This document shows, piece after piece, positions 14,376 through 48,759 of a stretch of DNA of 64,000 bases. Under the pieces are notes generated by a model, which was not told the origin of the DNA, did no database searches, and saw nothing but the letters and a program-made list of their open reading frames with translations. Source of the stretch: a virus. Taxonomy: Duplodnaviria; Caudoviricetes. The translations under genes were made by a program, and so were the position numbers. The first letter of the stretch is position 1. The number at the start of each line of letters is the position of its first letter. The DNA lies in IMG/VR virus record IMGVR_UViG_2595698595_000001, positions 128,001 through 192,000 of that record; one strand, given 5' to 3'.

Positions 14376-14417
14376 AAACCCATGTAACTGAAACTTACAT
14401 GGGTTTCGTAGTATAAT
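14376..14417 (+). promoter_or_regulatory. hairpin promoter cassette, type A
   Basis: AAACCCATGTAA-CTGAAAC-TTACATGGGTTT-CG-TAGTATAAT. Confidence 0.8.
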
Positions 14418-14480
14418 ACATTTAATTAATTAAATGCATTTCGTTACTTTGTAACATATATACAAAAAATACTTTCAATT

Positions 14481-14684
14481 ATGGCTAAAACTACATTAAC
14501 TCCACAAGAAATCGAAAAGGCTAAGGAATATTTCGGAAGAGGTGAATATCTTCATTTGGAAATCGTTTCGTGGAAAGACGAACCGTCATCATTCCCTTTC
14601 GTGACTTCATTGGAAGAGCTTATTAATGCTTTCAAACTTTGGGGTGACGCTAAAGATGTAAGACGTCTTTCGATCGAATGGTAA
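14481..14684 (+). CDS. hypothetical early protein
   Basis: TTTCAATT-ATG start downstream of the cassette. Confidence 0.6.
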   Translation: MAKTTLTPQEIEKAKEYFGRGEYLHLEIVSWKDEPSSFPFVTSLEELINAFKLWGDAKDVRRLSIEW

Positions 14685-14713
14685 TCTATTTCTAACTTTT
14701 ATTTTTTTCAATT

Positions 14714-15241
14714 ATGTACTTATCAAACATATACGAATCTTTCGTAGATTCTCAGATTTCTAATCCGTTTATCAATAACATGATTAAGAATCTTCCTTTC
14801 GAACAAATCACAGAAGGTAAATTTCCTGAACTGTTAAATACGTACCCCGAAGGTGTACGTAAAACTATCGAAGTTCTTCCAAATATTCTACACAAGCTAC
14901 ATACTTATTACAATGTTCCTGTAAAATGTGTTAAAGTAAATCACGAGTTGGAATTCGAACATGTTTCAAGTGAATGTACAACTGTTCAAGCCTTTCAATC
15001 TATTGTAAAGGCTGATCTTTGTACTAACTTTTCATTTACTGTCGATTTCGATAAGTTTACTGGTAGATTACCAATTAACAAATATCATCAAAAACGTACA
15101 CAGGACGATATTTTCATCATTGTAAGAAAACATTCAGGATTCATAAGTGTCGAAATCAGTGTATTCGATTACAAATCGTTTATCAGTAATGTAGAAATCG
15201 ATGAAATATTCGATCTTATCGTAGGTACTCCAAATTTCTAA
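14714..15241 (+). CDS. hypothetical protein, paralog of 18858..19391
   Basis: NLPFEQITEGKFP and SFISNVEIDEIFDLI shared with 18858. Confidence 0.65.
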   Translation: MYLSNIYESFVDSQISNPFINNMIKNLPFEQITEGKFPELLNTYPEGVRKTIEVLPNILHKLHTYYNVPVKCVKVNHELEFEHVSSECTTVQAFQSIVKADLCTNFSFTVDFDKFTGRLPINKYHQKRTQDDIFIIVRKHSGFISVEISVFDYKSFISNVEIDEIFDLIVGTPNF

Positions 15242-15244
15242 ATC

Positions 15245-15805
15245 ATGAACATATTCTTCCTAGATAACGATGAAACTATTTCAGCTTCATTATATACTGA
15301 TAAGCATATTATCAAAATGATTACAGAAACTTGTCAGATGCTTTCAACTTACGCTCATGAGAAATTCGAAAATCATCCTGTAGAGCTTTACAAACCTACA
15401 CATCGTAATCATCCATGTACTAAATGGTTATTCGAATCAACTAATAACGTTATACGTTTATGTAATATCGGTATTGCATTAGTTTCTGAATATCATTACA
15501 GATTCGGTAAACTTAACAATTTCTATAAAGCTAAACAAATACTTCATTATGTTTCGTTTAGAATTCTAGATTGCAGTTTCGAACTAGGTACCGAATTACC
15601 CTGTGTTGTAGCTGAATATGATGAGAATCTTTCAGTTTTCGAAAATTACGAAAAGTATTACATTACTCACAAGTTACAAAATGCTAAGTTTACTAACAGA
15701 CGTGAGTCAGAATTACATTGGACTAATAAAGCTGTAACATATTACGGGCAACAAAAGATTAAGGAAATTCAACAGATACTTCAAATACCAATAGAAAGAT
15801 TTTAA
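15245..15805 (+). CDS. pyrimidine-dimer glycosylase/endonuclease V-related phage protein
   Basis: MNIFFLD, DKHIIKMITETCQMLST and YKPTHRNHPCTKW family signature. Confidence 0.7.
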   Translation: MNIFFLDNDETISASLYTDKHIIKMITETCQMLSTYAHEKFENHPVELYKPTHRNHPCTKWLFESTNNVIRLCNIGIALVSEYHYRFGKLNNFYKAKQILHYVSFRILDCSFELGTELPCVVAEYDENLSVFENYEKYYITHKLQNAKFTNRRESELHWTNKAVTYYGQQKIKEIQQILQIPIERF

Positions 15806-15806
15806 C

Positions 15807-16238
15807 ATGGCTAACGAAACAAAAACATTACCAGTTCCAAGTTTAATACCTGACTGTATAATATACGACTATGATGGTAGAAATCCAGAATTAGCTTGGA
15901 CTAGAGATTTAAACCGATCTGCACAATTTGCAACAATTACTACAGTAATGGGTGATACATCAGTACCATGGGATAGAATCGTATTAGTACATAGATTACA
16001 GGATCAATTACTTAATCTATTGAAATACAAATTAAGCCTAATGACTACTTGGAGTAGAGGAATTTCACATTCTGATATCATTGATGCTATTAACACCAAG
16101 AAAGCTTTGATACGTGACATTGGTTGGAAACTTAGATGGGATGTATTTAATCAAACGAAATCAGAAATTATTGAAATAATCGAATCGTTAGGTTCTATGA
16201 ACCTTGAACAAGCAATAGAATTTAGAAAGGACAAATAA
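15807..16238 (+). CDS. hypothetical protein
   Basis: Tightly packed ORF. Confidence 0.55.
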   Translation: MANETKTLPVPSLIPDCIIYDYDGRNPELAWTRDLNRSAQFATITTVMGDTSVPWDRIVLVHRLQDQLLNLLKYKLSLMTTWSRGISHSDIIDAINTKKALIRDIGWKLRWDVFNQTKSEIIEIIESLGSMNLEQAIEFRKDK

Positions 16239-16239
16239 C

Positions 16240-16596
16240 ATGAAAAACTTACATTGGTTACTCGCATACAAACTCGATCTTAGATGTGCTGAATCTATTC
16301 AGGAACTTGAAGATAACGTAAAGGATATTCTATCTATTCTTGATAAAGTTAAGAACGATATTAAACCTCTTGAGGATAAACTATCTGAAGACGTTTTCTG
16401 GGATTTACAAGAACAATTAGAATCTTGTATAGAATCGTTCGAAATTATTAAAGTAATGAGAGACATGGAATTCGAAGATGCTGCTGGAAATTACAATGAA
16501 GCTTTAGCTTGTTTGTATGATTTCTGTGATGAAAAACTATTTATAGACGATCAGGTTAGAAGATTCATTTGGTTAGAACTTTCACATACTATTTAA
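16240..16596 (+). CDS. hypothetical protein
   Basis: Tightly packed ORF; LYDFCD...RFIW tail seen in small phage proteins. Confidence 0.6.
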   Translation: MKNLHWLLAYKLDLRCAESIQELEDNVKDILSILDKVKNDIKPLEDKLSEDVFWDLQEQLESCIESFEIIKVMRDMEFEDAAGNYNEALACLYDFCDEKLFIDDQVRRFIWLELSHTI

Positions 16597-16597
16597 C

Positions 16598-17824
16598 ATG
16601 AATAAATTTAATCAAGTTTTCAAATCTTCGTTAATCAATACTATCGGATACGATCCTATCGAAGTCGAAAGATTACCACTATTACAGAAATACTATATTC
16701 GGTTATATTATAAGTTATTCAATTCAAGTCCTTCTGAAAGAATAAGAACTTTCGTAGAATTCGAATGTAGTGACGCTTATAAAGCACAATTACTAACCTT
16801 AGAATCTATAAACTTACCTGAAGAATATAGTTGTTCGTATTACAAGATATCGTTATATGATTTGTTCTTTTCTGATACACAAACGTCATATTTACTGTTT
16901 CTCGAATTAGCTACAACTGATGTAATATTCGACAAAGTATTTCAGGAAAGATTCCATTGGATTTTTGATAAAGCTTACATAAAGTTTCTAGTTGAAAGTA
17001 ATCAAACTATCGTAATACTTAATGATAAGATATTTGACGAACAGATTCTTACGAATTTCGAGCTTTCTAAATTGTACGTTAATCATATCAAATTCGAAGA
17101 TCATACATCAGAATTCTTACATGAAAGACTTACGAAATTATTTGATCCTGTTAAAAACTTAGCATTCATTAAATATTACCTTCTAACTGAATGTGAAGAA
17201 TGCATAAACGATTTAACAGAATGGATCATAAAATCTATAGAATACGATTACGAGGATAAATCAAAGTATAAATATCGTAAAGATTTCTTTAACGATCTTT
17301 TCAAAGTCATATGTATAGACGCTTTCTCAGGTAAGTTTATTCATAAGATTTACAAGATTCAGAATTTAATAAGTCTAGAAAACAGGGAAGCTTATGTTAG
17401 ATTAGTTGAAGAACATGTAAAGACTTTCGGTTCTTCAAGATATTCCATACTTCTACTTTTTCCAAGTTCTTTAACTTCTACTGAAATCGTTCAGAAAGCT
17501 TTGAACGATTTGTCAAATCGTTTAACAGACAATACTAGTAAATCTGAAAACGTTTATAACTGTATCGATTCAGTTTATAGGATTTTTACTAGTTACGACT
17601 TCAACAATACAAGGATTCGTGACGAAATAAAAAGTTCACCATATTTCGATTCATTAAAGCTATATACGATATTTGCTATATACGTTAAACATCATAATTT
17701 CAATTTTCTTATGCATATTCCTAGAAATTGTATGACTCACAATATTCTTATGAGATTTGCTAAAGATTATCCGTTTTACCTTGGACAATATATGAAAGAC
17801 TGTCCAGATTTATTTGAAGACTAA
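16598..17824 (+). CDS. hypothetical protein
   Basis: 408-aa ORF. Confidence 0.6.
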   Translation: MNKFNQVFKSSLINTIGYDPIEVERLPLLQKYYIRLYYKLFNSSPSERIRTFVEFECSDAYKAQLLTLESINLPEEYSCSYYKISLYDLFFSDTQTSYLLFLELATTDVIFDKVFQERFHWIFDKAYIKFLVESNQTIVILNDKIFDEQILTNFELSKLYVNHIKFEDHTSEFLHERLTKLFDPVKNLAFIKYYLLTECEECINDLTEWIIKSIEYDYEDKSKYKYRKDFFNDLFKVICIDAFSGKFIHKIYKIQNLISLENREAYVRLVEEHVKTFGSSRYSILLLFPSSLTSTEIVQKALNDLSNRLTDNTSKSENVYNCIDSVYRIFTSYDFNNTRIRDEIKSSPYFDSLKLYTIFAIYVKHHNFNFLMHIPRNCMTHNILMRFAKDYPFYLGQYMKDCPDLFED

Positions 17825-18147
17825 TGGAAAATACAGACTTACAATACAGAGATAATTCTTATTTTAACGAAAAAGATTATTACATATTCGAATCACATGG
17901 TCAGTTAATGCTCAGACAAGTTGAGTTTTCTGGAACTAACTGGTTTGTAAAAGATGGTGTACCTTACAAAGCTACAACTGTTAGATGTGTAGTTTCCAAC
18001 GTTGGTAACTTTATCAAATCTATAGAAACTTTACTTGAAAGTATTAACAAGAAACGTAAATATGGTGAACGTACTGGATTCTTTTATGCTGACTTGGGTA
18101 CTGGTTTAACATTAAATTATGATATGAGTTTCATGAAATATACATAA
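17824..18147 (+). CDS. hypothetical protein
   Basis: TAATG-coupled ORF. Confidence 0.55.
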   Translation: MENTDLQYRDNSYFNEKDYYIFESHGQLMLRQVEFSGTNWFVKDGVPYKATTVRCVVSNVGNFIKSIETLLESINKKRKYGERTGFFYADLGTGLTLNYDMSFMKYT

Positions 18148-18166
18148 TACATAAATCAAATAAGAC

Positions 18167-18715
18167 ATGAAATCAATATCAGAACTATACGAAGCTTTCG
18201 TAGAATTAAAACATATTAACAAAGACAAAGAATTTATAGCAGGTAAGGATGTAAAAATCGATTACAAATCTTTACCTAAGCATGCTCAAAAATTCTTTGA
18301 TGCTTTGTATTCGGGATTCGAACAATTAGGTAACAAGATAACATTCGAAGCTAATGAATCTAAATTAAACTTGAATAATGCTAGTTATAATCTTGTAAGA
18401 GTTTCAAAACCTGGATCAGACTATGGAACTATTCTTACTAGAGAAGAAGTTCTAGAACATAACGCTAAAAAGGTTGTACATTTGACTTCAGGATTTTACA
18501 TTCATTCAGCCTCAAATGATAAACCTATTTATATTACGTTATTCCTTAACATGGGTCCTAAAGGTGACGCTTCATTCAAGCTTAGCTTTAACATGGATTC
18601 AACTAAAGATTTGAAATATGCTCCAGGAATGGATGGCTTAAAATTAGCGACATCTGTAGTTAAGGCTATGATATCAAAGAACAAAGCTTATCAGAATAGT
18701 TTCTTCAATATGTAA
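18167..18715 (+). CDS. MK-x5-YE leader protein (possible capsid-internal protein)
   Basis: N-terminus MKSISELYEAF; tandem WATACATA boxes at 18139/18146. Confidence 0.55.
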   Translation: MKSISELYEAFVELKHINKDKEFIAGKDVKIDYKSLPKHAQKFFDALYSGFEQLGNKITFEANESKLNLNNASYNLVRVSKPGSDYGTILTREEVLEHNAKKVVHLTSGFYIHSASNDKPIYITLFLNMGPKGDASFKLSFNMDSTKDLKYAPGMDGLKLATSVVKAMISKNKAYQNSFFNM

Positions 18716-18739
18716 GAAAAATTAAGAAAAAATGTAAAA

Positions 18740-18783
18740 GAAACCCTCGGAAACTGAAACTTTCGAGGGTTTCGTAGTACTAT
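18740..18783 (+). promoter_or_regulatory. hairpin promoter cassette, type B
   Basis: GAAACCCTCG-GAAACTGAAACTTT-CGAGGGTTTC-G-TAGTACTAT. Confidence 0.8.
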
Positions 18784-18857
18784 ACATTTATAAATAAATG
18801 GATTCCGTTACTTTGTAACGTATATACTAAATTAATAAATAAATATATCTTTCAATT

Positions 18858-19391
18858 ATGACAACTATCAAATCAAAACTTTGGCAAGAACATGTAACTT
18901 CAGTAACAGAAAACTTTCATGTTGTAGAATATCTTTGGAATCTTCCATTTTCAGAAATTACAAACGCTAACTTCCCAGATTTCTTCAATTATGGTTCTAT
19001 TGACAGAACTAACGAAATCGTTAAACAAATAATCTGTCACTTTCTGAAATACAATGTTGATGTTATTTTGACATACGATAACATGATTACTCAACGTATT
19101 TCAAATGTATTCGAATTAAAAGATTTAAGTAAGTTCGTAAACCTTAAACAAGTTTGTATCGTAGATTTACAGGGTCAATTCAGAAACGAGAAAGAAGAAT
19201 CTAAACGATATGGTGACGCTTTTACTATCGCTTTCGATACTCTTACCGATTTGGAGAAATCTAAACAAGATTACCGTCCTAACTTAGATGTAAGATGTTT
19301 CCGAATTATGGATATTGAAATGGAATCGTTCATCAAAGCTTCGGAAGTTGAAGAAATATCTGACCTAATTATTGACAGTCTTCAAAAATAA
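18858..19391 (+). CDS. hypothetical protein, paralog of 14714..15241
   Basis: NLPFSEITNANFP and SFIKASEVEEISDLI. Confidence 0.65.
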   Translation: MTTIKSKLWQEHVTSVTENFHVVEYLWNLPFSEITNANFPDFFNYGSIDRTNEIVKQIICHFLKYNVDVILTYDNMITQRISNVFELKDLSKFVNLKQVCIVDLQGQFRNEKEESKRYGDAFTIAFDTLTDLEKSKQDYRPNLDVRCFRIMDIEMESFIKASEVEEISDLIIDSLQK

Positions 19392-19408
19392 AAAGTAAAA
19401 AATAATTA

Positions 19409-19452
19409 AAAACCTACGGAAACTGAAACTTTCGTAGGTTTTGTAGTATAAT
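19409..19452 (+). promoter_or_regulatory. hairpin promoter cassette, compensatory variant
   Basis: AAAACCTACG-GAAACTGAAACTTT-CGTAGGTTTT-G-TAGTATAAT. Confidence 0.8.
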
Positions 19453-19488
19453 ATACTCAAATAACAAATTTATAAATATATTTCAATT

Positions 19489-19803
19489 ATGGCTTTATTA
19501 TCAATGTCTAACGGACCAAAACAAACATTAAACGTTAACTACGCGTTAGAAACTCTTCGAAATTCTGGAATCGATGCAATGAAACATTGCTTCAAACTTA
19601 CTGTTATGACTGATAACGGTTACGAGGAAGTTAAAACCTTCACTCATAAATCCATTCAAAAATGTTATGTTGTAACTTTAGCTGGTGGAAAATCTTTCAC
19701 ATTGTCTGAATTACTTCACTTACAAAAGGAATTAAAACAAGCTCGTATTAAAAATAACGAATCTTTAAACTGCAAAAAAGTTTACAGATATGAAGCAAAA
19801 TAA
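19489..19803 (+). CDS. hypothetical early protein
   Basis: TTTCAATT-ATG start. Confidence 0.6.
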   Translation: MALLSMSNGPKQTLNVNYALETLRNSGIDAMKHCFKLTVMTDNGYEEVKTFTHKSIQKCYVVTLAGGKSFTLSELLHLQKELKQARIKNNESLNCKKVYRYEAK

Positions 19804-20113
19804 TTTCGAGATTTTGGAGATTAACGGAAGACAATTAGTCTTCTGTTCTCCATCTTATGCTGAAACTTTATATGATTCTAAGATATTAGACATATCACCA
19901 GTAGGTCAAGCTACTACTCTTTCAAAAGAAGTTTATGAAGCATTAACACCTGTTCGTCTAAATACAGTTTATTACGATTACCTTAATAGTGGTAAATATT
20001 TCTTAGACCCTCGTGACAGTTTTATGTCATTCATGGAAGCTTCAGGAATGACTAAACGTTTTCCAAAAGAACCACCTTTCATTTTCATCATTCGTCAAGA
20101 CTTTTTAAACTAA
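19790..20113 (+). CDS. hypothetical protein
   Basis: Overlapping ORF. Confidence 0.55.
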   Translation: MKQNNFEILEINGRQLVFCSPSYAETLYDSKILDISPVGQATTLSKEVYEALTPVRLNTVYYDYLNSGKYFLDPRDSFMSFMEASGMTKRFPKEPPFIFIIRQDFLN

Positions 20114-20125
20114 ATACTTTCAATT

Positions 20126-20326
20126 ATGCAAGACCAATCAGTAATAGTCTGGAACTCTGAGACTAATCAAAACGATACTTTAGTAATCGATCAACAAGTA
20201 ATCGATTTCGCAAAGAACTACAAACAAGATCAAAAGAATTTCGACATTCTTTACCTTTCGTCAATTTCCACATTAATCGTTATAGCAATTGTAGTATCGT
20301 TAATCAAAAAATCTAGAAGAAAATAA
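20126..20326 (+). CDS. small single-TM protein
   Basis: TTTCAATT-ATG; C-terminal TM helix followed by KKSRRK. Confidence 0.6.
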   Translation: MQDQSVIVWNSETNQNDTLVIDQQVIDFAKNYKQDQKNFDILYLSSISTLIVIAIVVSLIKKSRRK

Positions 20327-20328
20327 TC

Positions 20329-20919
20329 ATGAAAATAACTCCGAAAATCCACCTAAGAATCTTCATTTCTATGATTGTAATTGTAGCTCTTTGTGCTGCT
20401 ACAGGTAATCCGTATTTAGCTGTTCTTTCTCTATTTCTAGCTTTATTCGTTTTGAAAGCTTTAGTAAACGAAAGGATTCTTTCCAGAATCGAAAGTTTCA
20501 ATATTGATTTCTTTTCAGAATCTAGAAGTAAACGATTAGAACGTTCGCAACTTAAGAAATACAAAGAACTTCTTAAAGACGGTTTTACTGAAGTTGAGAA
20601 TTCACCAGAATATCTGTTACGTCAAGATAATGGTACGAATACGTACGCATTAAATCCTAAGAATTACAATACGTTATCGAAGCTTATCATAATCAAGAAT
20701 CCTATTACGAAAGGTGGTTATACATCTCGTAAGATTGATAAAGTTTACGTAGAACATAATTTAGCTACTAACGAAATCGATATGTACTGTACAGATTCTA
20801 AAGATCGTTTGTATTTGAAATCTGAGATAAGAATATTCGAAGATTTCGATATTAACGAATTGTATGTCATATTAATGAAACGTCTAACTAAATCTATCGA
20901 ACATGGAAGATATAACTAA
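20329..20919 (+). CDS. membrane-anchored protein
   Basis: Two N-terminal TM helices. Confidence 0.6.
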   Translation: MKITPKIHLRIFISMIVIVALCAATGNPYLAVLSLFLALFVLKALVNERILSRIESFNIDFFSESRSKRLERSQLKKYKELLKDGFTEVENSPEYLLRQDNGTNTYALNPKNYNTLSKLIIIKNPITKGGYTSRKIDKVYVEHNLATNEIDMYCTDSKDRLYLKSEIRIFEDFDINELYVILMKRLTKSIEHGRYN

Positions 20920-21151
20920 GCATGCTAATTTGATTACAAGTATAACTCTCGTATTAGCTTGGGTTATTTGTATAGTTTCTGTACTTACTATTGGTTTTAT
21001 GAACGACAAGATTTCAGGTAAAAGTCTTATTATCATAATACTAATAGGATTAATGACAGCTTTACTAATGATTGGTATCAAATATGTTTTCAATGAAATG
21101 TCAGCAATCATATTTAAATTGAATCAGGAACTAAAAGAATTTAAACAGTAA
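20903..21151 (+). CDS. small 2-TM protein
   Basis: Two hydrophobic helices. Confidence 0.55.
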   Translation: MEDITKHANLITSITLVLAWVICIVSVLTIGFMNDKISGKSLIIIILIGLMTALLMIGIKYVFNEMSAIIFKLNQELKEFKQ

Positions 21152-21152
21152 C

Positions 21153-21181
21153 TGAAACTTTTTGACAATCTGTAGTATAAT
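21153..21181 (+). promoter_or_regulatory. promoter without hairpin
   Basis: TGAAAC-N14-TAGTATAAT upstream of the ligase. Confidence 0.7.
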
Positions 21182-21215
21182 ACATCTATATATTTAAACT
21201 ATAATCATTTCAATT

Positions 21216-23090
21216 ATGCAATTCGAAAAACATTCTGTTCAATTTCTTATCGATCTTTACAACAATGCTAAAGAACAGTATTACAATACTGGAAATTCCC
21301 CACTTACCGATTCAGAATTCGATGAATTAGAGGATTATTTGCTATCTAATGAATACGTCGAGAAATATGTTGGTACTGAAGAAATCAAAGGTACTAAATC
21401 ACCTCATGTAACTCCAATGTTATCTCTTGACAAAGTTCAAGTATTTACTGATGGATTTGAAGGGCATCATTTCGATCATGTTCTTGCAGCTCTTGGTAGA
21501 TATGATCAATTTGTTACTCATAAACATGGTGATCATATGCTTCAAGCTTCATTTAAATTAGATGGTTTAGCTGCAAATATCACATATGCTGATGGAGTTC
21601 TTAAAACTATCGCAACACGTGGTAACGGTAAAATAGGTTCTGATATTACTGAAAAATGTAAACATTTAGTTCCAAACAAATTATCAACAAATTTCAGTGG
21701 TGAGGTTCGTGGTGAAATCTTTATCAAGAAATCTACATTCATTCAGAAATATTCTGAATACAAAAATCCAAGAAACTTAGCTGCCGGTATTGTTGGTCAA
21801 AACGATATCAAGGACCCAAGATTAAAAGATTTGAATATCTTCTTATTTGAAGTGAAAGGTTCGGTTAAGACTTTATTCGAAATCGTTGACTTACGTCCAT
21901 TGATAATCGATTCTATTTCGTTCTTCAATACATTCGATGAAATGTCGAAAGCTTATCATGAATTACTTGATAAACGTACAAATCTCGATTATCCAACAGA
22001 TGGTATCGTAATTAGATTATCAAGTGCTGTTGAACATCGTGATAATGGTTTAGCACCACTTTACTCAGTAGCTGTTAAATTCCCTCCAATGTTAGCAAGA
22101 ACTAAAATTGCTAAAATCTCATGGAATCTTCGTAAATCTGGAAAATTCATTCCACATGCAACATTAGAACCTGTAGAATTGGATGGAACTATCGTAACTC
22201 ATGCAGCTTTACATAACTATGGATGGGTTAATGAAAGAGGTTGTTGGGAAGGTGCTGAGGTTGTAATTGGTAAAAATGGTGACATCATTCCACAAATTCA
22301 ATCAGTAGTAACAAAATCAGAACCTTCTAATCTACCAGAAAATCATGTAATTTCTGATAACGGTCTTCATATGTTACCATCGGGTGATATGTCTGACGTT
22401 ATTAATCGCAACAAATTCGTTCAAGGTTTTTATACTTTAGGAATGTTTGGATTCGGTGGTGCTACATTCATCAAACTTTATGATTTGATGGAAGGTAAAA
22501 TCGAAAACATCTTTAACGATGATTTGTTTACTAAGAAAAATCTAGCACCAATACTAGGTTTAGGAATGACTGGTCCTAAATTCCTTAAGGAACGTCAACA
22601 TGTTTTAGTAAATATGAATCTTCCTAAGTTGCTATTAGCTATGCAATTCGATTCTTGTGGCTGGAGACATTGTTTGAAACTGTCTAAAGCGTATTCGAAA
22701 CCGGATGCTGAACTTGATACATCTGGATTAAATTCTAAAGTTGTATATTCAGTAACACAGGATCAAAACAATATCTATCGTATAACTTCAGCAATTCAAT
22801 TAGCGTTAAGAAACGGTATCGAACTTGAAGATATCGAAGAAAAAGTTATCGAAAAAGGTTCAGTTACTTTTGAAATGACTGGATCACCTAAATTAGCTGG
22901 ATTCAAATCTAAGGAAGCTTTCGTACAATATGTATCAACTTGGAATCATACGAAACTTAAGAAAGATACCACTTATCTGATAACAGATGATAAGGTTTCG
23001 AAAACTTCAAAAATGAAATTCGCGGACGCTAACAATGTAACAGTTTTAACTTACGAAGAAGCTGTAGCTAAATTTAAAGAATCTTTGTAA
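21216..23090 (+). CDS. ligA: NAD-dependent DNA ligase
   Basis: YYNTGNSPLTDSEFD (domain Ia), PMLSLDK, KLDGLA, TRGNG, EVRGE, NPRNLAAG, TDGIV, GDIIPQI, C-terminal BRCT. Confidence 0.95.
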   Translation: MQFEKHSVQFLIDLYNNAKEQYYNTGNSPLTDSEFDELEDYLLSNEYVEKYVGTEEIKGTKSPHVTPMLSLDKVQVFTDGFEGHHFDHVLAALGRYDQFVTHKHGDHMLQASFKLDGLAANITYADGVLKTIATRGNGKIGSDITEKCKHLVPNKLSTNFSGEVRGEIFIKKSTFIQKYSEYKNPRNLAAGIVGQNDIKDPRLKDLNIFLFEVKGSVKTLFEIVDLRPLIIDSISFFNTFDEMSKAYHELLDKRTNLDYPTDGIVIRLSSAVEHRDNGLAPLYSVAVKFPPMLARTKIAKISWNLRKSGKFIPHATLEPVELDGTIVTHAALHNYGWVNERGCWEGAEVVIGKNGDIIPQIQSVVTKSEPSNLPENHVISDNGLHMLPSGDMSDVINRNKFVQGFYTLGMFGFGGATFIKLYDLMEGKIENIFNDDLFTKKNLAPILGLGMTGPKFLKERQHVLVNMNLPKLLLAMQFDSCGWRHCLKLSKAYSKPDAELDTSGLNSKVVYSVTQDQNNIYRITSAIQLALRNGIELEDIEEKVIEKGSVTFEMTGSPKLAGFKSKEAFVQYVSTWNHTKLKKDTTYLITDDKVSKTSKMKFADANNVTVLTYEEAVAKFKESL

Positions 23091-23506: not shown

Positions 23507-23544
23507 TAATACATATTATCTATAAACTATAACTGTAACTTATC

Positions 23545-31942: not shown

Positions 31943-31988
31943 ACGAAACCCTCGGAAACTGAAACTTTCGAGGGTTTCGTAGTAATAT
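31943..31988 (+). promoter_or_regulatory. hairpin promoter cassette, type B
   Basis: ACGAAACCCTCG-GAAACTGAAACTTT-CGAGGGTTTCGT-AGTAATAT. Confidence 0.8.
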
Positions 31989-34756: not shown

Positions 34757-34800
34757 GAAACCCTCAGAAACTGAAACTTCTGAGGGTTTCGTAGTATAAT
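34757..34800 (+). promoter_or_regulatory. hairpin promoter cassette, variant
   Basis: GAAACCCTCAGAA-ACTGAAAC-TTCTGAGGGTTTC-G-TAGTATAAT. Confidence 0.8.
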
Positions 34801-38060: not shown

Positions 38061-38109
38061 ACAAAAAGTTTCATCGTAAGTGAAACTTTTTGTCGTTTCG
38101 TAGTATAAT
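38061..38109 (+). promoter_or_regulatory. promoter with alternative hairpin
   Basis: ACAAAAAGTTTCA-TCGTAAG-TGAAACTTTTTGT; TGAAAC-N14-TAGTATAAT. Confidence 0.75.
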
Positions 38110-38564: not shown

Positions 38565-38565
38565 C

Positions 38566-38910: not shown

Positions 38911-38927
38911 CTTTATTTTTCAGCAAC

Positions 38928-38956
38928 TGAAACAATCTAAACTTTCGTAGTATAAT
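38928..38956 (+). promoter_or_regulatory. promoter without hairpin
   Basis: TGAAAC-N14-TAGTATAAT. Confidence 0.7.
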
Positions 38957-40676: not shown

Positions 40677-40711
40677 GTTGTAGTTGACCATTTTATATTT
40701 TTGTTATTTTT

Positions 40712-40745: not shown

Positions 40746-40770
40746 GATTAGATCAAATCGTTATTCAGAT

Positions 40771-40799
40771 TGAAACGATTTCATATTTGTTAGTATAAT
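40771..40799 (+). promoter_or_regulatory. promoter without hairpin
   Basis: TGAAAC-N14-TAGTATAAT upstream of DinG. Confidence 0.7.
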
Positions 40800-40838
40800 A
40801 TATTTCAATACAAATATATTTACACTAATGTCATACAA

Positions 40839-43295: not shown

Positions 43296-43300
43296 AAACT

Positions 43301-43564: not shown

Positions 43565-43566
43565 AC

Positions 43567-43878: not shown

Positions 43879-43939
43879 ACATAAAATATCAAGTTTAGTA
43901 TAATACATATAATTCAATATATAAATTCAGACAAAGAAC

Positions 43940-44206
43940 ATGACAGAACCTATCATTACAGTGTTGTCTAAAAACGGTTGCGTTCCCTGCGAAACTGTTA
44001 AAGCTACACTTAAATCGAGTAACATAAAGTTTGAAGAAATCAACTTATTCGATAACGCACATATTGCTACCAAATTCAAAATTCGAAACGTACCAACTGT
44101 AATGTTTACTAATAAACCATTAACAGATGATACAGCTATAGAAGTTTCGGAAAAATTCACAGGTCCTGGAACATTGGACAAAATTCAACAATACGTTTCT
44201 AAATAA
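43940..44206 (+). CDS. nrdH: NrdH/glutaredoxin-like redoxin
   Basis: CVPC motif and IRNVPT; first gene of the nrd operon. Confidence 0.75.
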   Translation: MTEPIITVLSKNGCVPCETVKATLKSSNIKFEEINLFDNAHIATKFKIRNVPTVMFTNKPLTDDTAIEVSEKFTGPGTLDKIQQYVSK

Positions 44207-44577
44207 TGACTATCGTTTATGACTCAAGGACTGGGAATATTGAACGATTCATTAACAAAGTAAAAGAACAAACTGGATGGACTTTCGTTAAGATTGATAA
44301 GAATCTTGTCATCGATGAGAAAGTCCATCTTGTTACTTATACTACAGGTTTCGGACACCTCCCAAATCCTACAAAGGCTTTTCTAGCAAATCAATCTAAT
44401 GTAAACAATTTACTTTCTGTATCAGTAAGTGGTAATCGTAACTGGGGACCTAATTTCGGTAAGGCTGGTGATATCATCTCAGATGAATACAACGTTCCGT
44501 TACTATTGAAATTCGAATTATCTGGTAATCCCTCTGAAATAGAAGCATTCATTGAAAACATTCAAAAATTCTCTTAA
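44206..44577 (+). CDS. nrdI: class Ib RNR flavodoxin
   Basis: YDSRTGNIERF, YTTGFG, SGNRNWG..F, KFELSG. Confidence 0.93.
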   Translation: MTIVYDSRTGNIERFINKVKEQTGWTFVKIDKNLVIDEKVHLVTYTTGFGHLPNPTKAFLANQSNVNNLLSVSVSGNRNWGPNFGKAGDIISDEYNVPLLLKFELSGNPSEIEAFIENIQKFS

Positions 44578-44583
44578 TACAAT

Positions 44584-47166
44584 ATGAACAATCCTTGGAT
44601 TTTACTTAACAACCAGCTGTTAAATCGAGCTGAAGGAACAATCGATTTAGAAAAAGACAAAGAAGCCGCGAGACAATTCTTCCTAGGATATGTAAACAAG
44701 AATATGGTTTGGTTCCATTCGTTACATGAGAAACTATGTCATTTGGTTAACGAAGGTTACTATTTCGATATGTTTCAGAATTACGAATATGAAGAAATCA
44801 AGGAGGTATTTTCATTCGTATATTCTAAGAAATTTCGTTTCCAATCGTATATGGCTGCATTCTTATTTTACAAGAACTATGCAATGCGTGATGGAGAAAC
44901 AGATCAATTCTTTGAAAGATATGAAGATCGTATAGCTACAGTAGCATTATATACTTCAATTGATCTTAAAACTGGTAAAGGTGATTTACAAAAAGCTTTA
45001 GCACAAGCTGAAATCATGATTAATCAGGAATATCAACCTGCTACCCCGACATTCTCAAACGCTGGAAAACTTAAAGGTGGTGAATTGGTATCATGTTTCT
45101 TAGATGAAATCGGTGATTCTAAAGTTGGAATATCCAAATCTATTCAAGCCGCATTGGATTTATCTTCGATGGGTGGAGGTGTATCGTTTAACGTATCTAA
45201 ATTACGTGCACGTGGTGAAGCTATTAAAGGAATCGACGGAAGAGCTTCAGGTGTTTTACCAGTAATGAAAATCCTTGAAGATGCTTTTTCATATGCTAAT
45301 CAATTAGGACAACGTCCAGGTGCTGGAGCTGCTTATATCAATATCTTCCATTCAGATGTTGAAGAATTTCTAGATTCTAAGAAAATCAACGCTGACGAAA
45401 AATCACGTCTTAAATCGCTTTCGTTAGGTGTTATCGTTCCTGACAAATTCATGGAATTAGCTGAGAAGGATGAACCATTTTATGTTTTCTATCCATATAC
45501 AGTTAAGAAAGAATACGGTAAACATCTAGATGATTTGGATATCGATACAATGTATTCCGAATTAGTTTCTAATCCTAATGTTAAGAAACGTAAGTTAAAT
45601 GCTAGACGTATGTTAACTAAGATTGCACAAGTTCAGAAAGAATCAGGTTATCCATATTTCTTCTTGAAAACTAATGCTAACGAATATCATCCTTTGAAGA
45701 ATTTGGGAGACGTTAAGTTTTCTAATTTATGTTTTACTGGTGATACTTTAGTTAACATAATTACTAGAGATGGTCAATATGTTAAACGTACTATTGAAGA
45801 TTTATCTACAAATTTCGATCATGAAAAAGAAGGATGTATAACAGTACAGGGTGCGTATTGGTCCGATGATAAAGGTCAATGGGACTATGAATGGTTTTAT
45901 GCTACAGCTTTCCAGACAGGTTGGAAAAAAGTAATAAAACTTGAACTATCTAACGGTGGTAATATAAAATGTACACCCAATCATGAAATAGCTACAATTC
46001 ATGGAAAGTATGTCAAGGCTTCAGAATCGATTGGTTCTATTTTAGCTTCAGATTCTAATAATGTATATGTAACTGATATTAAAGAATTAAACGAATGTGT
46101 TCCAGTGTACGATTTGAATGTACAAGGCCCCCATAATTTTACTATTTCTGTAAGTGATAACGAATCGGTTTTAGTTCATAACTGTACCGAAATCATGCAA
46201 TATTCAGAAGTGTCAGAATACAATGATTACGATAAGCAACATAACGATAAAATCAATTACGGTATTTCATGTAACTTAGGTTCTCTAAACATCGCAACTG
46301 TTATGAAGAATTCTAAAGATACTAATCGTTTCGAAAGGATCATAAGTACTGCAATGGATTCTTTAACTCATGTAACTGATCGAACTAACATTGCTGCTGT
46401 TCCTGCTATTGCTAGAGCTAACAAACATTTCAGGTCTGTTGGATTAGGTGCTATGAATTTACATGGTTATCTTGCACAAAATGAAATCATGTTCGAATCT
46501 GATGAAGCTTTAGATTTCGTTAATGTATTCTTCGGAATGGTAAATTACTATTCATTGAAACGTTCCATGGAAATTAGTAGAGAACGTGATTGTGACACTT
46601 TCGAAGGATTTGATGAATCTGAATATGGAAATGGTAAGTACTTTGACAGATACATAGATAACTTCAATCTAGAACCTAAATTCGATAAAACTAGTGAGTT
46701 ATTCGAAGGTATCGAAATTCCAAGTTTACAAGATTGGGTTGACTTAAAGGATGATGTAATGAATTACGGTATCTATCATGCATATCGTTTAGCTATTGCA
46801 CCTAACCAGTCAACAGCTTACATTATGTCAGCCACTCCTTCGATAATGCCAATATCTGATCAAGTTGAAGTACGTGAATATGATCATTCGACAACCTTTT
46901 ATCCTATGCCTGGAATGAACGATGATAACATGTTCTTCTATAAATCAGCATACGATATGGATCAGTTTAAGGTATTACGTTTAGTATCAGTTATTCAACG
47001 TCATATCGATCAAGGAATTTCATGTATTTTACATACAAATTCTGAAGATGATACCGCATTAATGGCAAGATATTACATCTACGCTTGGAAGATGAAACTG
47101 AAATCGTTGTATTATACACGAACTCGTAAATCCTCTATTGACGGATGTATATCCTGTTCAGCTTAA
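44584..47166 (+). CDS. nrdE: class Ib ribonucleotide reductase alpha subunit, intein-containing
   Basis: FQSYMAA, PATPTF, LVSCF, SNL/CTE, CNLGS, APNQS, KSLYYTR, C-terminal CISC. Confidence 0.96.
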   Translation: MNNPWILLNNQLLNRAEGTIDLEKDKEAARQFFLGYVNKNMVWFHSLHEKLCHLVNEGYYFDMFQNYEYEEIKEVFSFVYSKKFRFQSYMAAFLFYKNYAMRDGETDQFFERYEDRIATVALYTSIDLKTGKGDLQKALAQAEIMINQEYQPATPTFSNAGKLKGGELVSCFLDEIGDSKVGISKSIQAALDLSSMGGGVSFNVSKLRARGEAIKGIDGRASGVLPVMKILEDAFSYANQLGQRPGAGAAYINIFHSDVEEFLDSKKINADEKSRLKSLSLGVIVPDKFMELAEKDEPFYVFYPYTVKKEYGKHLDDLDIDTMYSELVSNPNVKKRKLNARRMLTKIAQVQKESGYPYFFLKTNANEYHPLKNLGDVKFSNLCFTGDTLVNIITRDGQYVKRTIEDLSTNFDHEKEGCITVQGAYWSDDKGQWDYEWFYATAFQTGWKKVIKLELSNGGNIKCTPNHEIATIHGKYVKASESIGSILASDSNNVYVTDIKELNECVPVYDLNVQGPHNFTISVSDNESVLVHNCTEIMQYSEVSEYNDYDKQHNDKINYGISCNLGSLNIATVMKNSKDTNRFERIISTAMDSLTHVTDRTNIAAVPAIARANKHFRSVGLGAMNLHGYLAQNEIMFESDEALDFVNVFFGMVNYYSLKRSMEISRERDCDTFEGFDESEYGNGKYFDRYIDNFNLEPKFDKTSELFEGIEIPSLQDWVDLKDDVMNYGIYHAYRLAIAPNQSTAYIMSATPSIMPISDQVEVREYDHSTTFYPMPGMNDDNMFFYKSAYDMDQFKVLRLVSVIQRHIDQGISCILHTNSEDDTALMARYYIYAWKMKLKSLYYTRTRKSSIDGCISCSA
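45730..46182 (+). mobile_element. mini-intein (151 aa, no endonuclease) in NrdE
   Basis: Starts CFTGDT; block B CTPNH; block F VYDLNV..HNF; ends VHN before the catalytic Cys. Confidence 0.92.
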
Positions 47167-47171
47167 AAACT

Positions 47172-47213
47172 AAACCCATGTAACTGAAACTTACATGGGT
47201 TTCTTAGTAAGAT
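47172..47213 (+). promoter_or_regulatory. hairpin cassette, type A (also a likely nrdE terminator)
   Basis: AAACCCATGTAA-CTGAAAC-TTACATGGGTTT-CT-TAGTAAGAT. Confidence 0.75.
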
Positions 47214-47237
47214 ATACATACTATTAAAAATAACTAA

Positions 47238-47915
47238 ATGAAAACACTTACTAAGATATACGAAAGTCTTTCATAGATTAATGTCGGTGATTATGTAAAA
47301 CTTACAGGATATGATAAAGATTACAGAGAAGCTGTAAGAGATTCTATAACACAAAATTTACTTGGTTTCGAATTCAATGGTGATAGAATTGCATGGGTAG
47401 CTGCTGCTAAATACATAAACGATGCTGTAATGCAAGTTACAGGAATAGAAGATTCTAATTGGGGTGTTCGTGCTAATCTTGAATTGTCGACAGGTGTAAG
47501 TCCTGAGAAACGTAGAATGTCTATCCCTTTAACATTCTTATCACCTGCTTCAAAATCGGAAGTTAAATCATGGTATGACATGAAATTCGATGACTATATC
47601 AAAGAATATGGTACACCTAAAATTCTATCAGAAAAAGAATTTAAAGAAAGACAATCAGTACCAAGTTCTAAAATGTTCCTAGTAACAAAACCATTTACGT
47701 TTAAAGGTAAACATGGTCAACTTAAATTCAGTAAGAATGATATAGCTAAATACTGGAATCAGAGTGGTAGTTTGGGTGACTTATTTACAGTAACTAATGT
47801 TACCACTGATAAATCTGATTCTAAAATGGAAACCGGTTATTCTGATACTCAAAATACTTCTGACAATCTTAAAGAATTGACTTATAAAGATTACGTAAAG
47901 TACATAAATAAATAA
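47238..47915 (+). pseudogene. MK-x5-YE leader gene interrupted by an in-frame TAG at 47274-47276
   Basis: MKTLTKIYESLS*INVGDYVKL... continues in frame into ORF 47430..47915. Confidence 0.65.
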
Positions 47916-47935
47916 TTGTTTTAGTATTTTTAAAA

Positions 47936-47979
47936 GAAACCCTCGGAAACTGAAACTTTCGAGGGTTTCGTAGTATAAT
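47936..47979 (+). promoter_or_regulatory. hairpin promoter cassette, type B
   Basis: GAAACCCTCG-GAAACTGAAACTTT-CGAGGGTTTC-G-TAGTATAAT. Confidence 0.8.
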
Positions 47980-48007
47980 ATATACTAATAACAAATATAT
48001 TTCAACT

Positions 48008-48712
48008 ATGAATACTATTTACAATCACCCATGTACTAATGAAGAACTTTTAACTATCGCTCTAGACAGAGTTAACTCTAACATTAAAGGAAAATGGCTT
48101 CATGTTTCAAGTCAATTCAATAACTTTGACAATGATTTTGAATACTATCTAGAAAAACCTATCTATACAGAATTCAAAGACAAATACGGAAACATTAATA
48201 CTGGTTATATTACTGTAATCGAATGTGAGAAATCACTATTCATTAATAAGTGGGAATTCAGTTTATTAGTAATATCTTCAGAAGGTCATGACAAAACTGT
48301 TACAAAAACGAATTCAGGTTTTCATTATACGAAAACTGATAACATAAAAGATCATTATCTTTTCAATTCTAGAAATGCTGTTGTAAGCTGTTCTAAACGT
48401 AACACTTTAAACAAAGCTGATTGGGATTTAATCGTTAGCATAACTAAAACTTTGAAAGTTGACGATTTCTTAAATTCTGGAAATGTATCACCTGAAACTA
48501 AACGTGATATAGTTAATAACAGAATTACATCAGATGGTGGAAATGTTACCTTTCATGATCATGATGATTTGATTCTTTTCACAGAACCGGATAATAGTAA
48601 GGTTTACACTTACTTAGATGTTGAACCTTCTGAAATGTTTCCAGATGGAAAACATAAGTTTCTAGCATCTAACGAACAAATAGATATCGCTTACAATAAA
48701 ATCGTAAAATAA
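48008..48712 (+). CDS. hypothetical early protein
   Basis: TTTCAACT-ATG; single gene between two cassettes. Confidence 0.6.
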   Translation: MNTIYNHPCTNEELLTIALDRVNSNIKGKWLHVSSQFNNFDNDFEYYLEKPIYTEFKDKYGNINTGYITVIECEKSLFINKWEFSLLVISSEGHDKTVTKTNSGFHYTKTDNIKDHYLFNSRNAVVSCSKRNTLNKADWDLIVSITKTLKVDDFLNSGNVSPETKRDIVNNRITSDGGNVTFHDHDDLILFTEPDNSKVYTYLDVEPSEMFPDGKHKFLASNEQIDIAYNKIVK

Positions 48713-48715
48713 ATC

Positions 48716-48759
48716 AGAAACCCATGTAACTGAAACTTACATGGGTTTCTTAGTATAAT
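48716..48759 (+). promoter_or_regulatory. hairpin promoter cassette, type A
   Basis: AGAAACCCATGTAA-CTGAAAC-TTACATGGGTTTCT-TAGTATAAT. Confidence 0.8.

Follow-up and report, generated by a model that had tools for sequence, protein, structure and literature searches.

Predicted composite terminator-promoter cassettes with the −35 box in a hairpin loop in a T4-like jumbo phage

The 64-kb window lies within the 219,372-bp (219-kb) genome of a T4-like jumbo phage, in which the + strand carries 282 of the 285 called ORFs and 5.9% of the sequence is non-coding. The window carries eight intergenic cassettes among non-structural genes, in each of which a hairpin overlaps a putative promoter (Table 1). 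The sequence-only reading had described these eight copies with an invariant core and a TAGTA box 14 nt past TGAAAC, and all of them were found at the positions given (8/8), the −10 box being TAGTATAAT in five and TAGTACTAT, TAGTAATAT, and TAGTAAGAT in one each. Their intergenic position directly past stop codons, also described there, was borne out, with ACTGAAAC beginning 16–38 nt past the end of the upstream ORF in every cassette. The window also has six further TGAAAC-N14-TAGTA sites without a loop-type hairpin (at 9112, 9772, 21153, 38081, 38928, and 40771).

Table 1. Hairpin cassettes and related promoter sites in the window; cassette starts are the first base of the 5′ arm.
Feature	Positions	Strand	Stem (5′ arm / 3′ arm)	−35 box (loop in cassettes 1–8)	−10 box	Next ORF from	Fold (kcal/mol)	z	Remarks
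Cassette 1	14376..14417	+	14376-14387 / 14395-14406	CTGAAAC 14388-14394	TAGTATAAT 14409-14417	14481 (67 aa)	-14.7	-4.32	
Cassette 2	18740..18783	+	18740-18752 / 18761-18773	ACTGAAAC 18753-18760	TAGTACTAT 18775-18783	18858 (177 aa)	-20.0	-5.50	
Cassette 3	19409..19452	+	CCTACGG/TCGTAGG	19422-19429	TAGTATAAT 19444-19452	19489	-15.5	-4.71	two compensated pairs vs cassette 2
Cassette 4	31943..31988	+	15 bp, 31943-31957 / 31966-31980	31958-31965	TAGTAATAT 31980-31988	32017	-23.7	-6.90	
Cassette 5	34757..34800	+	CCCTCAG/CTGAGGG	34770-34777	TAGTATAAT 34792-34800	34830	-21.4	-6.75	
Cassette 6	47172..47213	+		47184-47190	TAGTAAGAT 47205-47213 (weak)	not before 47430 (called ORFs)	-15.5	-4.26	directly past RNR large-subunit gene; late-type TATACATA directly after −10 box, at 47213
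Cassette 7	47936..47979	+		47949-47956	TAGTATAAT 47971-47979	48008	-20.0	-5.75	
Cassette 8	48716..48759	+	14 bp	CTGAAAC 48730-48736	TAGTATAAT 48751-48759	48789	-19.1	-5.50	
Promoter TGAAAC-N14-TAGTACTAT	9772..9800	+				sugar-epimerase gene			separate T-rich terminator hairpin ends 25 nt ahead of TAGTA box
Hairpin-less promoter	21151..21181	+		ACTGAAAC 21151-21158	TAGTATAAT 21173-21181	21216 (NAD-dependent DNA ligase)	-2.1	+1.06	ninth exact AACTGAAACTT (21150); ACTGAAAC overlaps TAA stop of upstream ORF
Variant cassette	38061..38109	+	14-bp hairpin 38061-38093	AGTGAAAC 38079-38086	TAGTATAAT 38101-38109		-15.8	-4.58	−35 box is the 3′ arm, paired with an inverted upstream copy
Hairpin-less promoter	38926..38956	+		ACTGAAAC 38926-38933	TAGTATAAT 38948-38956	38995	-3.2	-0.57	
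Weaker copy ATTGAAAC-N13-TTAGTATAAT	40769..40799	+				40839 (DNA helicase)			no overlapping hairpin

The exact core AACTGAAACTT occurs nine times in the window, on the + strand only, and allowing up to one mismatch gives 18 matches where 4.23 are expected, a number reached by 0 of 100 shuffles. Genome-wide, TGAAAC-N14-TAGTA occurs at 33 forward (coding-strand) sites and one reverse site, with 0.16 in block shuffles, and the TAGTA box lies within a non-coding gap at all 33 forward sites. The −35 box, (AAC)TGAAAC(TT), stands exactly 14 nt ahead of TAGTAYWAT, equivalent to TGAAAC-N17-TATAAT, and the strong matches all share this one spacer length; by this arrangement the pair is a predicted bipartite promoter of the sigma-70-family type. 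The promoter lies 27–87 nt ahead of the start codon of genes for replication, nucleotide metabolism, and small products of unknown function, including topoisomerase II, DNA polymerase, clamp loader, ligase, helicases, the RNR operon, and many small ORFs. A second motif, TATACATA, consists of a −10 box without −35 information and precedes structural genes.

The RNA folds of the eight cassettes range from −14.7 to −23.7 kcal/mol (z −4.3 to −6.9), and for each cassette 0 of 200 shuffles folded as well as the native sequence. The stem arms quoted in the sequence-only reading do pair and were drawn too short, the true stems being 12–15 bp with AAA/TTT pairs included; the 5′ arm shifts in register between copies, yielding loops of 6, 7, or 8 nt, and every loop-type copy holds TGAAAC in its loop. 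The covariation claimed for the stems was confirmed in 12 genome copies in a common register, where six pairs were altered on both sides compared with 1.4 in shuffles (six reached by 0 of 500), while each of six slid registers gave no such change. The 17 hairpin copies found genome-wide have 12 distinct stems, which belong to few lineages, several being one pair apart, so that only about six compensatory changes, not dozens, can be counted as independent. Among their 156 stem cells, 144 are Watson-Crick, seven are G·U, and five are unpaired, all five at the outermost pair, and the 151 paired cells were reached by 0 of 2000 arm permutations (mean 127). As all seven non-Watson-Crick pairs within the stem are G·U, which would be C·A mismatches on the other strand, the hairpin points to a selected RNA structure on the coding strand.

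The same promoter also occurs without this structure. The 33 genomic sites comprise 17 with a loop-type hairpin, two with the −35 box as a stem arm, and 14 with no fold better than −6.4 kcal/mol, so that promoter recognition does not involve the hairpin, which is, on this evidence, dispensable for it. In addition, at 39 further TAGTA boxes without a loop hairpin, TGAAAC is still visible at −20 to −15 and G/A/A/C information is retained at −19 to −15. The proposal of a hairpin that presents the −35 box, made by analogy with N4, is therefore not upheld. N4 virion-RNAP promoters carry a hairpin with a short stem and a 3-nt loop, and like the cassettes they combine a phage promoter with an inverted repeat. 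An extruded repeat that displayed the −35 box in its loop, or whose extrusion switched the promoter off, would agree with the perfect 12–15 bp inverted repeats and the constant presence of TGAAAC in the loop; it is very improbable, given the hairpin-less sites with identical boxes and spacing, the sites with the box in the arm, the sliding register, and wobble pairs that are mismatches in DNA. The cassettes also differ from N4 promoters in their long stems and in a loop whose −35 box has a standard −10 box after it. No phage RNA polymerase was found in a search whose T7-type control gave no information. Operator-like palindromes for a dimeric phage regulator would account for the inverted symmetry and for the pairing of GTTTCA with TGAAAC at four sites. 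The arms, however, covary instead of being conserved, with three to four pair types at several positions among the 12 stem haplotypes, which indicates pairing rather than sequence-specific protein contact and makes this explanation barely credible. As for what the RNA hairpin does, it probably stops transcription. The other intergenic hairpins of the genome have the same AAAC..GGGTTT build, and most end 0–18 nt (typically 0–12 nt) ahead of a TAGTA or TATACATA box; the cassette hairpin resembles the phage's other terminator hairpins, which likewise abut −10 boxes. The claim of a combined terminator and promoter stands as the best reading. Against its terminator half, a simple consensus terminator scan called none of the eight cassettes of the window on the + strand, the U-tract there (UUUCGUAG) is poor, and formation of the AAA/UUU and ACG/CGU pairs would use it up entirely. 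The hairpins might instead be RNA 3′-end stabilisers or processing sites of upstream messages, or bidirectional antisense stops, in keeping with that weak U-tract, with stems whose A- and T-tracts are symmetric, and with 3 of 8 cassettes being called on the − strand, for which the A-rich sequence upstream supplies the T-run; the G·U pairs reveal RNA-level structure and are silent on its function. We nevertheless regard such roles as rather improbable, since the strand bias of the ORFs leaves little to protect on the − strand, hairpins of identical build with a good T-run precede late promoters, and stem-loops of similar form in promoter-early stem-loop (PeSL) cassettes were shown to terminate transcription (PMC2839356).

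A Shine-Dalgarno signal is absent from the ORFs of this phage (4-mer core in 14 of 282 ORFs versus 17 of 282 control windows), A stands at −3 in 63%, and the capsid relatives are all Bacteroidota phages. Judged from these features the host is a member of the Bacteroidota, and as the translation signals fit that group, the host machinery would be expected to use the Bacteroidota housekeeping promoter. The published consensus is −33 TTTG and −7 TAnnTTTG, refined to TAHHTTTG, with a G frequency of "virtually zero" where the cassette −10 box has G (PMC6847099). TAHHTTTG is not enriched in the non-coding DNA of the phage, as 65 copies are forward, 6 of them outside coding sequence, and 114 are reverse. 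In contrast to it, TAGTAYWAT has an invariant G and lacks TTTG, and the putative cassette promoter is, as had been noted, unlike the host housekeeping consensus. The further suggestion of a phage-supplied sigma factor or RNA polymerase fits in so far as the phage encodes sigma factors. One sigma gene (genome 94–1179, outside the window) has regions 2 and 4 that align to RpoD (9e-50 against phrog_351; 52.8 bits against TIGR02937, cut-off 42.9), and a gp55-like ORF of 140 aa (genome 89894–90313) matches phrog_234 at 1e-6; no RNAP beta or beta′ domain was found in the phage genome, although the controls were detected in all 14 genomes tried. For the jumbo phages of this group, a minimal and a fuller sigma factor without an RNA polymerase have been reported (PMC7824862). 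The reader of the bipartite promoter is probably, with some reservation, the sigma factor with regions 2 and 4, and the gp55-like minimal sigma may read the −10-only TATACATA. In T4 late transcription, the minimal sigma gp55 uses a −10-only promoter with the motif TATAAATA, whose core is one base apart from TATACATA; the lack of −35 information and the gp55-like ORF add to this likeness, which concerns the neighbouring promoter class and not the hairpin cassettes.

The assignment to a phage sigma meets a start-up problem, since the operon with the gp55-like gene is driven by the TGAAAC/TAGTA class, a TGAAAC/TAGTATAAT promoter would, should the record be a circular permutation, lie about 160 nt ahead of the sigma gene itself, and host-type promoters are not enriched. 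Phages of the phiEco32 type reportedly encode their own sigma factor and promoter class and have their earliest genes on host-type promoters; the jumbo phage would resemble them in using its own sigma to bring host core polymerase to promoters unread by the host sigma, and differs in that no host-type promoter class was found. Some polymerase that is available when infection begins must then read the class, and the same layout might be read by a host factor, either an alternative or ECF-type sigma or a housekeeping sigma remodelled by a phage protein, with the phage sigma serving another role. This is a possibility to keep in view, if an unlikely one. A −35 box ending in AAC, as TGAAAC does, is typical of ECF-type promoters; the corresponding boxes are 16–17 nt apart in ECF promoters, whereas TGAAAC and CGTA are 12 nt apart here. 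Against a host factor also stand the invariant G, nearly absent at that place in the Bacteroidota element, and the match of two sigma-like genes to two promoter architectures (regions 2 and 4 to the bipartite one, region 2 only to the −10-only one).

The comparison with PeSLs, drawn in the sequence-only reading, fits. PeSLs are composite terminator/promoter cassettes of T4-type myoviruses, whose stem-loops may overlap the −35 or −10 box or lie between the boxes (Arbiol et al., 2010, PMC2839356; Comeau et al., 2014, PMC4122927). The likeness extends to a T4-like myovirus genome, an intergenic element of about 100 bp with −35 and −10 boxes at N17 spacing plus a stem-loop, a tendency to cluster next to small genes without known function, single genes bracketed by two cassettes, and a common A-tract/GC/T-tract build (A3-4G3-loop-C3T3-4 in the PeSL of phage nt-1, A3C3-loop-G3T3 here). 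PeSL promoters follow the host sigma-70 consensus and are early, whereas the present phage has a predicted Bacteroidota host, a non-housekeeping promoter that a phage sigma likely reads, and no Shine-Dalgarno element; the −35 box is in the loop in 17 of 19 overlapping-hairpin cassettes, compared with five placements for PeSLs; and termination, which is predicted for the present cassettes, is documented for PeSLs, as are mini-circles and indels between sister phages.

We therefore favour, as the fairly probable explanation, composite terminator-promoter cassettes that are the functional counterpart of the PeSLs of T4-type coliphages, including a phage-sigma reader and a role in recombination. 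At roughly half of the sites, the upstream transcript would fold into an RNA hairpin built around the promoter, with the 5′ arm upstream of the −35 box, the −35 box as loop, the spacer as 3′ arm, and an end in UUUC/UUUU immediately ahead of the −10 box; this location of the −35 box would follow from the tight packing of the terminator against the −10 box and not from any recognition of the loop. The hairpin would terminate or attenuate upstream read-through, so that each downstream unit starts afresh, with host core RNA polymerase and the sigma with regions 2 and 4 reading the bipartite promoter and the gp55-like sigma reading the late motif. Stems at genome 90587 and 203406 are chimeric, joining two arm types through G·U pairs, and would require crossovers in the loop, where PeSL crossovers were mapped. 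The flanks are mosaic in their homology. The 52 proteins that flank 26 cassettes include no homologous pair, and 15 of the 17 ORFs downstream of hairpin cassettes have no PHROG family. Together, chimeric stems and mosaic flanks suggest that the roughly 70–100 bp of shared cassette sequence may double as a substrate for recombination between unrelated genes.

The eight intergenic cassettes reported from the bare sequence, each a hairpin whose loop holds a -35 box (TGAAAC) followed by a -10 box (TAGTAYWAT), were all recovered at their positions on the + strand of the window, and the spacing and placement described for them hold in 8/8 copies, with TAGTA lying 14 nt after TGAAAC and ACTGAAAC starting 16–38 nt past the end of the upstream ORF, directly after its stop codon. 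The window holds nine exact copies of AACTGAAACTT, all on the + strand, and 18 matches are found with at most one mismatch against 4.23 expected. Across the whole record (219,372 bp, rated complete), TGAAAC-N14-TAGTA has 33 forward matches and 1 reverse match, compared with 0.16 in block shuffles, and the TAGTA box is non-coding in 33/33 forward sites of a genome in which 5.9% of the DNA is non-coding by our own ORF call. These 33 sites divide into 17 with a loop-type hairpin, 2 arm-type sites in which the -35 box forms the 3′ arm of the hairpin and pairs with an inverted copy upstream, and 14 without a fold better than -6.4 kcal/mol. The ninth exact copy and one further copy in the window keep both boxes and lack the hairpin (z of +1.06 and -0.57, respectively). 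TAGTAYWAT by itself has 52 forward (45 non-coding) and 8 reverse matches genome-wide, and the 39 boxes that lack a loop hairpin retain G, A, A, A, and C at -19 to -15, each in 25–37 of the 39. Since the two boxes stand at fixed spacing also where no hairpin is formed, they constitute a promoter-like signal on their own, to which the hairpin is an optional extra.

Coordinates of cassettes, motifs, and genes, numbered by window (bases 128001–192000 of the record) or by genome (the whole record)
Feature	Window	Genome	Remark
Loop-type cassettes 1–8	14376, 18740, 19409, 31943, 34757, 47172, 47936, 48716		+ strand
Ninth exact copy	21150		Hairpin absent
Further hairpin-less copy	38927		Hairpin absent
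Arm-type site		30942	
Arm-type site	38081	166081	
Cassettes bracketing single-gene modules	18753/19422, 47183/47949/48729		
Cassettes with chimeric stems		90587, 203406	
Leader hairpins, first type	~14440–14455, ~18808–18822	~90645–90660	
Cassettes followed by leader hairpin, second type		26337, 91511	
-10 variant TAGTACTATACAT	18775–18790	38957, 90609, 203428, 218874	
TATACATA starts in window	934, 12359, 30212, 42842, 47213, 50580, 51683, 55157, 59362, 62701		
GTTTCA/TGAAAC inverted repeats		219250–219313, 89843–89893	First at record end
362-aa sigma-70-family protein		94–1179	phrog_351 9e-50; TIGR02937 52.8 bits (cut-off 42.9)
844-bp gap after sigma gene		~1183–2026	tRNA-like sequence, GGTTCGAATCC motifs
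140-aa gp55-like ORF		89894–90313	phrog_234 "late sigma transcription factor" 1e-6; weak Sigma70_r2 match
Large terminase gene		56873–59077	Opposite strand
Paralogue family loci	3657–5989	122556–125497, 25530 / 92020	Tandem or dispersed

When cassettes 1–8 were folded as RNA, each gave a single hairpin of 12–15 pairs (-14.7 to -23.7 kcal/mol, z -4.3 to -6.9), and for every one of the eight copies 0/200 shuffles folded as well. The 3′ arm is fixed in register relative to the promoter boxes, and the 5′ arm shifts between copies, so that the loop measures 6, 7, or 8 nt. Aligned in this structural register, the 17 hairpin copies contain 12 distinct stems, whose 156 stem cells comprise 144 Watson-Crick pairs, 7 G.U pairs, and 5 unpaired cells, all 5 at the outermost pair; when arms were permuted among copies, a mean of 127 cells paired and 0/2000 permutations reached the observed 151. 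The covariation claimed for the stems is borne out by six pairs changed on both sides in the 12 copies of the same register, against 1.4 in shuffles (0/500 reach six), with no two-sided changes in six slid registers used as a control. The non-Watson-Crick pairs inside the stem are all G.U, and in cruciform DNA or on the other strand they would be mismatches. The hairpin is therefore under selection, and its pairing favours an RNA structure of + strand transcripts. Two cassettes carry chimeric stems, with the 5′ arm of one type and the 3′ arm of another paired through G.U alone, as expected from a crossover inside the conserved loop. Rfam returned 0 families in the window. Three cassettes are followed in the presumed 5′ leader by a small hairpin, CGTTAC-TTT-GTAACG in two copies and CGTTAC-AAA-GTAACG, with the loop flipped, in the third; a second leader hairpin type, GATTC-N5-GAATC, follows two others. 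Inverted repeats of GTTTCA/TGAAAC also occur elsewhere, one of them directly upstream of the last cassette-type promoter and another as a hairpin with a good T-run and no -10 box, ahead of the gp55-like gene.

A scan of all gaps showed that the other strong intergenic hairpins of this phage share one build, an A-tract, a G+C core, a loop, a second G+C core, and a T-tract, and that most of them end 0–18 nt from a -10-type box, either TAGTAYWAT or TATACATA. The genome habitually sets a hairpin against the next -10 box, and where the promoter also requires a -35 box 14 nt upstream, the geometry makes that box fall within the loop or the 3′ arm. Past the G+C core of the cassettes the tract reads UUUCGUAG or UUUUGUAG, that is, UUUC/UUUU followed by G/U-UAGUA in the transcript. 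The cassettes have the hairpin of an intrinsic (Rho-independent) terminator, and from their RNA-compatible pairing and their likeness to the other terminator hairpins of the genome we infer that they would act as terminators or attenuators of upstream transcription. A consensus terminator scan (rule of 5 T in 8) called 0/8 window copies on the + strand and 3/8 on the - strand; in view of the lack of + strand calls, the hairpins are possibly attenuators and not full stops. They may instead serve the stability of RNA 3′ ends.

A second intergenic motif, tTATACATAt, usually stands 0–18 nt past a T-rich terminator hairpin ahead of structural genes and is probably a late promoter class. It is represented by TATACATA, which has 50 forward (42 non-coding) and 2 reverse matches genome-wide, carries no information upstream of -2 and no -35 element, and resembles the T4 late promoter. 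The genes behind it encode the baseplate wedge, tail sheath, portal, prohead protease, major capsid, and tail proteins; it also stands as a second promoter before a few replication genes (topoisomerase II, helicase, and the RNR small subunit). The TGAAAC/TAGTAYWAT class precedes genes for topoisomerase II, DNA polymerase, clamp loader, ligase, helicases, a thioredoxin-RNR operon, DHFR, and many small ORFs, as well as the operon containing the gp55-like gene. A -10 variant of this class, TAGTACTATACAT, overlaps a near-copy of the late box (TATACAT) at five places, and promoters with this variant might be readable by both holoenzyme classes.

The phage is T4-like in its PHROG matches, which include the tail sheath, baseplate wedge, portal, prohead protease, and a gp23-like capsid among structural proteins, together with a split family-B DNA polymerase, clamp loader, topoisomerase II subunits, a DNA end protector, and a gp55-like sigma. 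Of its 285 called ORFs, 282 lie on one strand, the large terminase gene being among the three opposite. Several paralogue families of no assigned function are present (phrog_32512 ×2, phrog_26327 ×3, phrog_31822 ×2, and phrog_1583 ×2). Capsid relatives among GenBank phages, at 25–37% identity, all come from Bacteroidota hosts (Tenacibaculum, Chryseobacterium, Flavobacterium, and Prevotella). A Shine-Dalgarno signal is absent genome-wide, the 4-mer core being found in 14/282 ORFs vs 17/282 control windows; start codons have A at -3 in 63% of cases, A is also enriched at -11 to -13, and tttcaa(c/t)tATG recurs. The start-codon context described for Flavobacterium johnsoniae matches that of the phage (PMC6847099), and relatives and start context together point to a host among the Bacteroidota. 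The housekeeping -7 element given in the same study is TAHHTTTG, in which G is "virtually zero" at both middle positions (PMC6847099). The mismatch with this consensus proposed from sequence alone is upheld, as TAGTAYWAT has an invariant G at a middle position and no TTTG. The non-coding DNA of the phage shows no enrichment of TAHHTTTG (6/65 forward copies non-coding; 114 copies on the reverse strand), and no host-type promoter class was found in its genome.

The sequence-only reading had proposed a phage-supplied sigma factor or RNA polymerase, of which the former agrees with two sigma-like genes that the phage encodes; RNA polymerase beta/beta′ domains were not found in the phage by searches that were positive in 14/14 control genomes, and a search for a T7-type polymerase gave no match, with a control that was itself blind. 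In the 362-aa sigma protein regions 2 and 4 are present and segments align to RpoD, each single Pfam domain match being below its cut-off; the AlphaFold model (mean pLDDT 43.7) is too poor for use. The 140-aa gp55-like ORF, a candidate minimal sigma encoded downstream of the split DNA polymerase genes, has no significant match among PDB sequences. For a jumbo-phage group including Tenacibaculum phage PTm1, a survey reports the same pairing, one minimal and one fuller sigma and no RNA polymerase (PMC7824862). Matching promoter architecture to domain content assigns the bipartite class to the sigma with regions 2 and 4 and the -10-only class to the region-2-only protein; the chance that the 362-aa protein reads the bipartite promoter is about even, and the gp55-like protein would read the late class. 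Should the record be circularly permuted, a TGAAAC/TAGTATAAT promoter, together with a TATACATA box, would stand ~160 nt ahead of the sigma gene, at the opposite end of the record. For the start of infection, the sigma may enter together with the DNA, a host factor may be the first to read the class, or the few host-like sites may be enough. The gap following the sigma gene, outside the window, holds tRNA-like sequence; within the window ARAGORN found no tRNA.

The spacing of TGAAAC to a TATAAT hexamer is 17 nt (TGAAAC-N17-TATAAT), and the sites are strand-specific, upstream of genes, and 27–87 nt from -10 box to ATG in the hairpin cassettes, as in bipartite promoters of the sigma-70 family; a generic promoter scan matched them to TTGACA-N17/18-TATAAT at 10/12 positions, a consensus that is not that of the inferred Bacteroidota host. 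In hairpin-less copies TTGACA occurs in the spacer, and it was dropped as a -35 box because it lies merely 9 nt from the -10 hexamer. In ECF promoters AAC and CGTA are 16–17 nt apart, and an ECF-type promoter was discarded on the 12 nt found here, as was a MotA-type middle promoter because the -10 box is not host-type. The analogy with the hairpin promoters of phage N4, proposed from sequence alone, fails since the hairpin is dispensable, 14/33 sites with the same boxes being without one; the phage also showed no RNA polymerase beta/beta′ domain.

The analogy with PeSLs, the promoter-early stem-loop cassettes of T4-type phages, fares better, extending to the common phage type, the cassette layout, the build of the stem, and small neighbours of unknown function. 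PeSLs are small composite cassettes of hyperplastic regions, conserved over ~100 bp; their stem-loop is variously placed, between the two boxes, on top of either of them (-35 or -10), or up- or downstream. The stem consensus found in phage nt-1 is A3-4G3-loop-C3T3-4, and recombination between cassettes produces indels as well as mini-circles, one crossover having been traced to the loop (PMC2839356, PMC4122927). Like PeSLs, the present cassettes bracket single-gene modules, and 15/17 ORFs downstream of hairpin cassettes were without a PHROG family at the thresholds used. Homology between copies extends ~20–38 nt to the left of the core and 10–56 nt to the right and is mosaic. The repeats could have spread as by-products of gene duplication, an explanation abandoned because the 52 proteins beside 26 cassettes include 0 homologous pairs. 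PeSLs carry a host sigma-70-like early promoter, and the promoter of the present cassettes does not match the inferred host's housekeeping consensus; moreover, they have no Shine-Dalgarno element, and of the 19 whose hairpin overlaps the -35 box, 17 have that box in the loop. The reading preferred here, with reasonable though incomplete confidence, is a terminator-promoter cassette of PeSL-like design whose bipartite promoter is specific to the phage. A bolder extension of it, which we consider improbable, makes the overlap a hand-over device: upstream RNA would come free with the polymerase positioned on the next promoter's -10 box, and the core enzyme would be recaptured there by the phage sigma and re-initiate, giving a chain of insulated yet polymerase-sharing units with a sigma/promoter pair orthogonal to the Bacteroidota host. 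Bacterial RNA polymerase retained on DNA after termination and re-initiating has been reported (PMC6978380, PMC6978322).

No sequencing run, of RNA or DNA, was listed for window 14000–23900. Megablast of window 44000–56000 against GenBank phages gave no match; a pattern scan of IMG/VR gave 4 single matches, 0 with a hairpin or TATAAT-like box, and a metagenome scan returned at least 118 loci, among the matches listed 0 with a stem of at least 7 pairs, 2 with a TAGTAYWAT-like box, and none multi-copy. Homologues of the 362-aa sigma at 62–63% identity lie on two contigs. Searching IMG/VR with this protein alone gave no locus, and an alignment of 5 sigma homologues led to 46 distant loci, whose 792,601 bases contain 0 matches to the motif. 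In the distant relatives PTm1, pT24, MA9V-2, and MaF61, TGAAAC-N14-TAGTA has 1 match in 4 genomes, and TAGTAYWAT and TATACATA are at control level. Very high PHROG scores (e.g., 4327 bits over 1857 residues) suggest the existence of a near-identical public genome, and the searches for relatives may skip records close to the window's own. No description of the motif was found among the papers listed, nor anything relevant on promoters of Flavobacterium or Tenacibaculum phages, in literature covering few subscription journals.

The observation made in the window is confirmed and extends to the whole genome, for which two mapped promoter classes and their putative terminators amount to a ready regulatory annotation of 219 kb. 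If the preferred reading is true, the PeSL design is not peculiar to proteobacterial T4-type phages and recurs in a distant T4-like lineage on Bacteroidota, where PeSL-type packing of a terminator and promoter into a repeated, recombination-prone unit would be built on a different promoter grammar. The phage would then possess a sigma/promoter pair that should go unread by the housekeeping sigma of its host. Such a compact pair is a candidate for controlling expression orthogonally in Bacteroidota, in which the usual bacterial promoters do not work. The main interest lies in this non-host promoter grammar and in the question it raises of how transcription begins when the sigma gene stands behind its own promoter class.
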